From IMG/VR virus record IMGVR_UViG_3300038451_000684: a stretch of DNA of 64,000 nt. One strand, 5' to 3'. The stretch is from a virus (lineage: Duplodnaviria; Heunggongvirae; Uroviricota; Caudoviricetes). This document shows positions 44,259 through 45,207 of this stretch, piece by piece; within the stretch, counting starts at the first letter, position 1, and the number at the start of each line of letters is the position of its first letter. The position numbers and the translations under genes are program-made. A model generated the notes under the pieces. The model ran no database searches, had not been told where the DNA came from, and saw nothing but the letters and a program-made list of their open reading frames with translations.

Positions 44259-44549
44259 ATGAATTTCACAGGACATCAGGCACGCGTTTTGGCTGGCATT
44301 CCGCCGCTGGTAGAAGATGCGACATGGAAGGCCATCGCTCCGCAAGATCAGCACCGCATCGAGTGTGAGCATTTCCATGCGTGCGGAGAAGATGCGACGT
44401 GGACCACGCGGCAAGGCACTCTTTGCGTCTGCGATTATCATCGCTTCACTGCGGACATTCAGCGCATCATCAAAGCCCTGACGATCCAGAACCAGAACTT
44501 TTTGATTCCTGCTGTTGAGAGGCCGTCGCATGAACGAATCAGCGCATGA
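44259..44549 (+). CDS. Cys/His-rich hypothetical protein (96 aa)
   Basis: Residues CEHFHACGED...CVCDYH. GGGAAGGGAAG RBS. Confidence 0.4.
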   Translation: MNFTGHQARVLAGIPPLVEDATWKAIAPQDQHRIECEHFHACGEDATWTTRQGTLCVCDYHRFTADIQRIIKALTIQNQNFLIPAVERPSHERISA

Positions 44550-45207
44550 CCAAAAGCGGATGGCGGCGGGGTTCGTTGTCATGGCCTGCATGATGGTTCT
44601 CGTTCTTTGGCGCTGGCACCAGCGGCAATTGGACTTGGGAATTCGACATCGCACGGCGCATTTGGAGCGCGAAAATGAACAAATGCGCTACTACGCCGAA
44701 CACGATGATCTGACCGGCTTATGGAATCGCCGCATGATTCTCCAGCGGTTGCATCAAGAAGTGAACCGCGCACAACGCGACCACACCCCCTTGAGCGTTG
44801 TTTTGCTTGATCTGGACCATTTCAAGCGGGTCAACGACACATTCGGCCATCCGGGCGGGGATCTGGTTCTCGAAAAGGTTAGCGCCATCTTGCAGAATTT
44901 TGTGCGTTCTTATGATTGGGTCGGCCGTTGCGGAGGCGAAGAGTTTTTGTTGATTCTCCCAGGAGCCAATTTGCTCAATGCGCAAACGCGCGCCGAACAA
45001 TTACGGCAAACCATCGCTTTGTCAGAGTTTTTGCACGACGGCGCACTGATCCAGATCACGACTAGCTTAGGGGTTGTTTGCAGCTTCCCGGCTATGTGTG
45101 ACGGTCTGATCCGCACCGTCGACTCCGCGCTCTACGAAGCCAAAAAGAAGGGAAGGAACTGCGTCGTGGCGATTGAGATGAAACCTTGCGAAAGGGAAAA
45201 TCGATGA
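44515..45207 (+). CDS. membrane-anchored GGDEF-domain diguanylate cyclase (start 44515 or 44530)
   Basis: One N-terminal TM helix. The canonical [23 protein letters not shown] and RCGGEEF active-site motifs are both present. Confidence 0.8.
   Translation: [230 protein letters not shown]

Follow-up and report, generated by a model that had tools for sequence, protein, structure and literature searches.

The 64,000-nt stretch of DNA from a soil tailed phage (IMG/VR record IMGVR_UViG_3300038451_000684, Caudoviricetes; hereafter the window) carries a gene for a GGDEF-domain protein, and the evidence supports reading its product as a canonical membrane-anchored diguanylate cyclase (DGC) in which the catalytic and allosteric residues are all intact. 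Bacteria use cyclic di-GMP (c-di-GMP) as their main switch between a motile and a sessile existence, and two GGDEF domains are required for each reaction that makes it. An earlier note, written from the sequence letters alone, had singled out this gene; its observation is confirmed, and the data support an intact cyclase inherited with the phage. Our preferred reading, which we consider probable, is that the protein is an active membrane DGC, captured once from an Acidobacteriota-type host, that lacks a sensor, is constitutively dimeric and product-inhibited, and raises c-di-GMP in the host. Residue numbers are counted throughout from the TTG at position 44515.

The earlier note had the gene begin at that TTG. 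An open reading frame (ORF) does run from it (44515..45207 on the plus strand, 230 aa in the ORF list), but the start is probably the ATG at 44530, since a Shine-Dalgarno-like GAGAGG lies 7 nt 5′ of it and database copies begin there (P0001, 100% identical, 225 aa). The claim of a full GGDEF domain stands: Pfam GGDEF (PF00990), the only Pfam domain in the protein, matches over almost its whole profile (positions 1-160 of 161; E=7.8e-45, 153 bits against a cut-off of 23.8), and the motifs, including RCGGEEF, are found. The claim of a single transmembrane (TM) helix is likewise upheld by one hydrophobic segment at residues 16-34 (mean Kyte-Doolittle hydropathy 1.89 over 19 aa), which is helical in an AlphaFold2 (AF2) model. 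About 10 residues precede this helix, leaving no room for a sensor domain, and Pfam detected neither Y_Y_Y (PF07495) nor a propeller sensor N-terminal to it. An Arg-rich flank (WRWHQRQ..RHR) on the C-terminal side of the helix is consistent with a cytoplasmic catalytic domain.

The metal-binding Asp, the Lys/Arg phosphate ligands and the guanine-specifying Asn/Asp (N107, D116) are all in place. In an alignment of phage and cellular homologs, D99, D101, K104, N107, D116, R138, GGEEF (140-144), K210 and R214 are invariant or nearly so: D99, N107, R138, GGEEF, K210 and R214 do not vary, and D116 is Asp in at least 90% of the aligned relatives. These positions stand at a constant offset to D327, N335, D344, R366, G368-F372, K442 and R446 of PleD. 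The RxxD inhibitory site (I-site) reads R131-S-Y-D134 and is followed by WVGRC and then GGEEF, the active site (A-site). The spacer is thus exactly 5 residues, as it also is in PleD, and on that ground product inhibition is expected. A phmmer search of the PDB returned DgcB, WspR, SiaD and PleD at E values of ~1e-28 to 1e-31. The AF2 model, a monomer built from a 10-sequence alignment (predicted local distance difference test, pLDDT, 88; predicted TM-score, pTM, 0.72), shows an unbroken helix from residue 5 to 62, comprising TM segment and stalk, that enters a canonical GGDEF alpha/beta domain; the top Foldseek matches are SiaD and a GCN4-WspR fusion, both long-helix DGCs.

In the mechanism that we propose, the TM helix would anchor the protein in the inner membrane and, together with the heptad stalk, would form a parallel homodimer that pairs two cytoplasmic GGDEF domains. 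Each domain would bind one GTP-Mg2+, and the pair would condense two GTP into c-di-GMP. Because a sensory domain is absent, the enzyme probably works constitutively from the time it is synthesised. The RxxD I-site would cap output through product inhibition, so that the host c-di-GMP pool would be raised to a set level and GTP would not be drained. Given that no receptor is recognisable in the window, the signal would most likely act through host effectors, and the most likely outcome would be a shift of the infected or lysogenised cell to a sessile, exopolysaccharide-producing, low-motility state. The phage could benefit if surface receptors were altered or masked (superinfection exclusion) or if the host were kept in a biofilm.

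The gene sits in a defined slot of the phage genome, with the order methyltransferase, 78-aa protein, 221-aa protein, TM protein, GGDEF, resolvase, and then lysozyme and peptide deformylase (PDF). The slot holds a GGDEF gene in four groups: that of the window (P0001), a 91%-identical strain found in 71 blocks of the collection (P0002), a 63% lineage (P0003) and a 54% lineage found in 76 blocks (P0056/L015), whose neighbouring genes, at 47-74%, show a similar divergence. Dozens of independently assembled contigs, and diverged lineages as well, show identical synteny. Each of two alleles is nucleotide-identical over several independent samples, and dN/dS between two close alleles (one pair) is 0.20, which indicates purifying selection. 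Other relatives keep the flanking genes around an empty slot, which makes GGDEF accessory and confines it to a sub-clade. In a neighbour-joining tree of 106 homologs (computed without support values), the phage copies group together as a six-leaf clade, a pattern consistent with a single capture and vertical inheritance thereafter.

The nearest cellular homologs are 50-61% identical, depending on the region compared, and belong to Acidobacteriota or Terracidiphilus where they are named. Short cellular orthologs (P0053, P0096 and P0030; 50-55% identity) lie in a conserved chromosomal order, ribosomal protein L31, Dus and GGDEF, and the phage gene appears to derive from a chromosomal Acidobacteriota TM-stalk-GGDEF gene of this L31-Dus-GGDEF context. 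The cellular cyclases of the L31-Dus-GGDEF and Y_Y_Y-TM-GGDEF types (these three with P0014 and P0016) share with the phage protein the TM-stalk-GGDEF core and the same catalytic, I-site and stalk motifs; they differ in their cellular context and in that many of the nearest homologs bear a large periplasmic Y_Y_Y sensor at the N terminus, and the phage copies stand apart as their own clade. Downstream of one L31-Dus-GGDEF ortholog lies a Wzi/Wza/Wzc exopolysaccharide cluster; P0096 is followed by a sigma54 two-component system and a MacB transporter (the context of P0007 is similar), and P0030 by unrelated genes. The host is probably an acidobacterium of the Terriglobales/Terracidiphilus type, judging from these nearest homologs and from the likeness of the large terminase subunit (TerL) to that of the Tunturiibacter (Acidobacteriota) phages Tunturi_1/2 (PMC11924767), with which it shares 29% identity over 97% of its length (E=8e-79).

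Evidence on dimerisation comes from the stalk. The window allele is without seven stalk residues (KAQMLLS), exactly one heptad, that are found in every aligned relative. When the spacing from LExE to DxLTGLWN was measured over the 120 best database homologs, it was 21 aa in 76 homologs, 14 in the window allele and 28 in one other; only multiples of 7 occur, as expected for a register-sensitive coiled-coil stalk. Such heptad-only indels lend indirect support to a parallel dimer that would position the two catalytic domains, and they are joined by the continuous TM and stalk helix (in a monomer-only AF2 model) and by the fact that the top structural matches are dimeric stalk-helix DGCs. The best whole-chain matches, SiaD (7e6g) and the GCN4-WspR fusion (3i5c), both have a long N-terminal helix that runs straight into the GGDEF domain, and GCN4-WspR, being a coiled-coil GGDEF construct, supports the coiled-coil dimer model. 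Unlike the phage protein, SiaD is a soluble enzyme that depends on SiaC, an activator acting on its stalk; nothing resembling SiaC could be recognised in the window. The short-stalk allele is not an assembly error, since the identical nucleotide sequence is found on five further contigs from five different samples, and it amounts to a natural experiment on coiled-coil register in a DGC.

The same stalk could serve a different end: the phage protein might modulate the host's own cyclase, forming heterodimers with the L31-Dus-GGDEF ortholog or with Y_Y_Y-sensor DGCs and so uncoupling them from their signals. The homology to host proteins does span the TM helix and stalk, beyond the catalytic domain, and phage and host proteins alike carry the stalk motifs LExE and DxLTGLWN without variation. 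However, the phage protein keeps its own active site and I-site fully conserved under purifying selection, neither of which pure interference needs, and with a stalk one heptad shorter the catalytic domains of a heterodimer would be out of level. We think modulation of this kind unlikely.

The intact catalytic residues bear on two further alternatives. Many natural GGDEF proteins are non-enzymatic, and the domain could be a catalytically silent receptor for c-di-GMP or GTP, or a scaffold, in which case the intact I-site could bind c-di-GMP. Non-enzymatic GGDEF proteins typically have degenerate A-sites, however, whereas here both GGEEF and the full set of metal, guanine and phosphate ligands are preserved without variation, and the catalytic domain superposes on that of the active enzyme PleD with a root-mean-square deviation of 1.3 Å over 167 aligned columns (Foldseek); a silent domain is accordingly given little credence. 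As to the product, Hypr-GGDEF synthases of cyclic GMP-AMP (cGAMP) have Ser at the position of PleD D344. D116 is Asp rather than Ser, so c-di-GMP is the expected product, and a Hypr-type cGAMP synthase was rejected on this residue. The idea that the gene makes another dinucleotide or belongs to a phage defence or anti-defence signalling module gains some appeal from the prevalence of cyclic-nucleotide signalling in phage-host conflict (PMC10118264, PMC12657218) and from the investment of this lineage in conflict systems (CRISPR arrays and toxin-antitoxin modules). But PADLOC gave no defence-system match for GGDEF or its six neighbours, no coupled gene is effector-like or has an effector domain, and membership of a CBASS- or Pycsar-type system was rejected for these reasons. 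We regard the idea as very improbable, and the earlier note's suggestion that the protein might feed a cyclic-nucleotide signalling module is not supported for a module of the defence type.

The search for a c-di-GMP receptor agrees with the earlier note, which had recognised no cognate effector nearby. Pfam scans of ~100 window ORFs gave no PilZ, EAL, HD-GYP or MshEN domain, and Rfam gave no c-di-GMP riboswitch or other family at gathering threshold in the whole window; at E<=1, between 33 and 54.5 kb, it returned only spurious miRNA-like matches on a long hairpin. The gene immediately downstream is predicted, from its ATGA overlap, to be translationally coupled to GGDEF. Its 98-aa product belongs to a broad family of small phage proteins (374 representatives), is modelled by AF2 as a generic all-alpha bundle of five helices (pLDDT 90) rather than a PilZ fold, and gave no fold match in the PDB and one marginal match in BFVD. 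Its gene is absent from a sister clade that still carries GGDEF. Broad family, lack of a known fold and that absence together rule it out as a dedicated GGDEF partner. The 208-aa membrane protein was also rejected as a partner: its homologs, all unannotated, are restricted to the phage lineage, and it stands beside the slot in all clades, with GGDEF present or not. Over the 96-aa Cys/His-rich ORF that overlaps the GGDEF start, comparison with the P0002-type allele gave 7 synonymous and 9 non-synonymous changes in the plus frame and 4 and 21 in the minus frame, so the plus-strand ORF is probably a real gene rather than the antisense ORF picked by some gene callers; a homolog is present in L167, which has no GGDEF.

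The earlier note took the gene to be phage-encoded, and its surroundings bear this out. The window encodes a major-head-like protein (PHROG), lysozyme, HNH endonuclease and terminase, along with PDF, DUF932, DUF6573, a methyltransferase and a small serine recombinase, and no scan found a housekeeping gene in its 64 kb or in a further 3-9 kb of flanks. On same-strain contigs, phage-like genes run 3.3 kb and 9.4 kb beyond the window's two ends: to the right come a Rha/ANT antirepressor and small ORFs (L114), and to the left proteins of 377, 215, 100, 633 and 881 aa, some of them tail-sized, and a VapBC module (L115). With these flanks the element exceeds ~77 kb, and recurrent 129-134 kb contigs of the lineage suggest a genome of ~130 kb. 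Relatives of the window TerL are encoded on 97 stretches in IMG/VR. A temperate or persistent lifestyle, with lysogenic conversion plausible, would agree with the presence of the antirepressor, helix-turn-helix regulators, toxin-antitoxin modules and recombinases. That a host gene was instead put in phage context by mis-assembly, a prophage flank or hitch-hiking in specialised transduction is hardly credible: the nearest non-phage relatives are indeed cellular Acidobacteriota DGCs, many "phage" records with GGDEF matches are really host DNA (H8, for example) and the relatives, including contigs of up to ~130 kb, were seen without their ends, but phage genes extend for ~17 kb to one side of the gene and for no less than 19 kb to the other, the slot recurs with the same synteny in several viral lineages, the cellular orthologs have a different context, and synteny and flank walking thus keep the gene in phage DNA and rule out reassigning it to the host.

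Several points count against an active cyclase that reprograms an acidobacterial host. First, the relatives without GGDEF (L158, L167 and L176) show that the gene is not essential to the phage. Second, the window stalk is one heptad shorter than that of the 76 homologs with standard spacing, which could shift activity either way. Third, the link to the host is indirect: no TerL relative occurs among 185,579 reference species representatives, in a scan that detects close relatives only, and the CRISPR repeat was not found in reference genomes either. Fourth, promoter and terminator scans performed at chance level and are uninformative. Finally, the link to exopolysaccharide is a weak hint, because it is seen in one of three cellular contexts; the hints toward polysaccharide are that one ortholog beside Wzi/Wza/Wzc, the position of the DGC of Bacillus phage SP-15 in a glycosyltransferase cluster, and polysaccharide genes on contigs that bear related CRISPR arrays.

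Table 1. Positions of the GGDEF gene, its parts and other features in the window.
Feature	Position	Strand	Basis and remarks
GGDEF diguanylate cyclase gene	44530..45207	+	225 aa from ATG; ORF list, Pfam, database copy P0001
Single N-terminal TM helix	44560..44616	+	residues 16-34; hydropathy, AF2
Stalk (signalling) helix, TM to catalytic domain	44617..44700	+	AF2, alignment, spacing count
GGDEF catalytic domain	44695..45159	+	residues 61-215; Pfam, phmmer against PDB, Foldseek
I-site RSYD (RxxD)	44905..44916	+	residues 131-134; all four invariant in alignment
A-site GGEEF	44932..44946	+	residues 140-144; invariant among aligned phage and cellular homologs
Multi-pass membrane protein, 208 aa	43423..44049	+	left marker of GGDEF slot; 57 homologs, all unannotated
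Cys/His-rich ORF, 96 aa	44259..44549	+	overlaps GGDEF start; codon comparison
98-aa gene	45204..45500	+	ATG overlaps GGDEF stop (ATGA); PHROG 5692
Small serine recombinase (resolvase)	46579..47286	+	Pfam Resolvase 9.6e-25, Recombinase 7.5e-5; conserved in relatives; closes plus-strand accessory block
Large terminase subunit (TerL)	25633..27792	-	719 aa; PHROG terminase matches
CRISPR array 1	47346-48382	likely transcribed -	15 copies of 37-nt repeat, 14 unique spacers of 32-36 nt
CRISPR array 2	53266-53865		~9 copies, same repeat, more degenerate, unique spacers

The GGDEF gene lies within a 14-kb plus-strand block (33638-47286) whose orientation diverges from that of the structural and lysis genes. 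Its contents, which include DUF932, DUF6573, the serine recombinase and an orphan methyltransferase (PADLOC mad2/MTase_II-like), recall the establishment regions of plasmids and of integrative and conjugative elements (ICEs). On the minus strand at 48560-49542, the PDF gene, which is conserved across the phage lineage, stands directly upstream of the co-oriented lysozyme gene, followed by a CRISPR array on the same strand. The insertion at 50884-52476 (minus strand), missing from the otherwise syntenic L006 and L013, comprises a 305-aa transposase of the IS1595 family (DDE_Tnp_IS1595 with a zinc ribbon) next to a 213-aa ORF. Short intergenic tandem heptamers (CCCTAAC, CCCCTAA) occur at 15980-16031 and 62966-63019, and the same heptamer family builds the arms of a hairpin at ~53900. 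The TerL gene of L147 (5150-9301, minus strand) has grown to ~1383 aa with intein, Hint and LAGLIDADG domains, an intein or homing endonuclease having interrupted it; longer TerL matches are found likewise in L049, L057, L061, L089 and L098, and the window TerL is uninterrupted.

The window also carries two CRISPR arrays. Array 1, between the serine recombinase and the lysozyme gene, has the repeat GTTGCATCAAACAGATGCACTGAAAGTTCCTTGCTAC. Degeneracy of its repeats at the 47346 end suggests that the leader lies at the other side, probably near 48400-48560, and that transcription follows the minus strand; read in that direction, every repeat closes with a 6-bp hairpin abutting the spacer. Array 2 is directly followed, at 53856-53969, by a long near-perfect hairpin of ~110 nt made of CCCTAAC-like heptamers, which draws spurious Rfam matches to miRNA precursors. 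No cas gene was found in the window, and the repeat has no Rfam CRISPR-DR match. At the corresponding position, relatives carry arrays of related repeats (4 copies in L006, more than 30 in L015 and L113). Metagenomic stretches with the conserved repeat core number at least 120, and contigs of 90-130 kb each hold several arrays. The exact repeat was absent from IMG/VR, and its 20-mer core had one chance match in reference genomes. Three leader-proximal spacers had no protospacer in IMG/VR, and spacers searched against 104 related loci (L001-L104) matched nothing besides same-strain contigs.

Two contigs (L153:841-3153 and L135:7886-9958, both minus strand) encode a 770-aa Cas12-like ORF, in each case ~200 bp away from an array whose repeat belongs to the same family. 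Both contigs share phage synteny genes with the window, and related phage contigs reach 90-120 kb. PADLOC assigns the protein to Cas12f/Cas12u1 (6e-23) and Pfam to Cas12f1-like TNB (3e-13); it is only distantly related to the solved structures of Cas12m, TnpB and Cas12f. From these sequences, the phage lineage looks to have its own compact type V CRISPR-Cas system. The Cas12-like protein is also linked to L212, L199, L202, L211 and L220. Four array-bearing contigs (L178, L151, L194 and L126) carry near their repeats a Wzx-type flippase, group 1/4 glycosyltransferases, an NAD-dependent epimerase and a Wzc-like kinase, as well as genes for radical SAM (S-adenosylmethionine) proteins, a thiamine pyrophosphate enzyme and PIN/BrnA toxin-antitoxin modules; L126 is on a phage-lineage contig, and the other three may or may not be phage DNA. 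The arrays and the relatives' Cas12-like gene may be more interesting than the GGDEF gene itself.

DGCs have been met on mobile elements before. DgcX of enteroaggregative E. coli O104:H4 is always found beside lambdoid prophages and has both A-site and I-site intact; its very high expression means that it adds to the host c-di-GMP pool (PMC4287979). Like the window protein it is a mobile, membrane-anchored GGDEF protein with an intact A-site and RxxD 5 residues upstream; unlike it, DgcX has a multi-helix membrane sensor and hitch-hikes beside a prophage, whereas the phage gene encodes one TM helix and no sensor, sits in a conserved slot deep in the phage genome and belongs with another host phylum. 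Experiments cited in PMC10672970 showed that DgcK and DgcL, carried by SXT/R391 ICEs, and Dgc137, from the VPII island of Vibrio, alter biofilm and motility in the carrier cell, and for VPII phage resistance too. They resemble the phage gene as DGCs carried as mobile-element cargo, but their elements are conjugative or integrative rather than tailed phages, and their domain architectures and hosts are different.

In phages, a Mu-like virus with a DGC comes from the Cariaco Basin (PMC7785012), and a DgcQ-like gene is listed for phage G (PMC12484599). A tblastn search found GGDEF matches in 113 of 50,697 phage records; further phage genes are those of Bacillus phage SP-15 (gp150), Acetobacter phage phiAX1 and Microcystis phage MaAM05. 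The SP-15 DGC is genuine, being inside the complete genome of an isolated phage. It is a bare 183-aa domain, whereas the window protein has a TM helix and stalk and is inherited under selection in a phage lineage. The GGDEF genes of SP-15, the Mu-like virus, phage G, phiAX1 and MaAM05 represent independent acquisitions in unrelated phages, and their domains are 30-39% identical to that of the window. Some of the other matches are bacterial: in ON470595.1 (L117, H8; "Escherichia phage vB_EcoS-683R6") the match is E. coli dgcM with ttcA, dbpA and zntB, that is, host chromosome, and several more are bacterial contigs (Salmonella records of ~500 kb). Database counts of "phage DGCs" are therefore inflated by host DNA. 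A full-text literature search, of incomplete coverage, found no functional study of a phage-encoded DGC.

Since DGCs have already been reported with prophages (DgcX), on ICEs (DgcK/DgcL) and in phages (SP-15, the Mu-like virus), the novelty is modest: this is a well-documented example of a principle already established, to which it adds lineage-level conservation, a sensor-less architecture and a heptad-indel allele. Two alleles one stalk heptad apart, relatives that lack the gene in its slot, and a host ortholog that can be recognised make a tractable system for relating stalk register to DGC output. Few bacteria are as abundant in soil as Acidobacteriota, and the exopolysaccharides they make influence how soil is structured and how it retains carbon. 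More tentatively, and with considerable doubt, a constitutive viral c-di-GMP synthase might, upon infection or lysogeny, lock abundant soil Acidobacteriota in an exopolysaccharide and biofilm state, exclude rival phages and shape soil aggregates, alongside the CRISPR arrays of the lineage and the Cas12-like effector of its relatives, a strategy of holding the host and fending off competitors; if true, this would be, to our knowledge, the first functionally defined phage DGC. A stable, sensor-less and feedback-limited phage cyclase would show that soil viruses directly reprogram the lifestyle signalling of their hosts, beyond metabolism.

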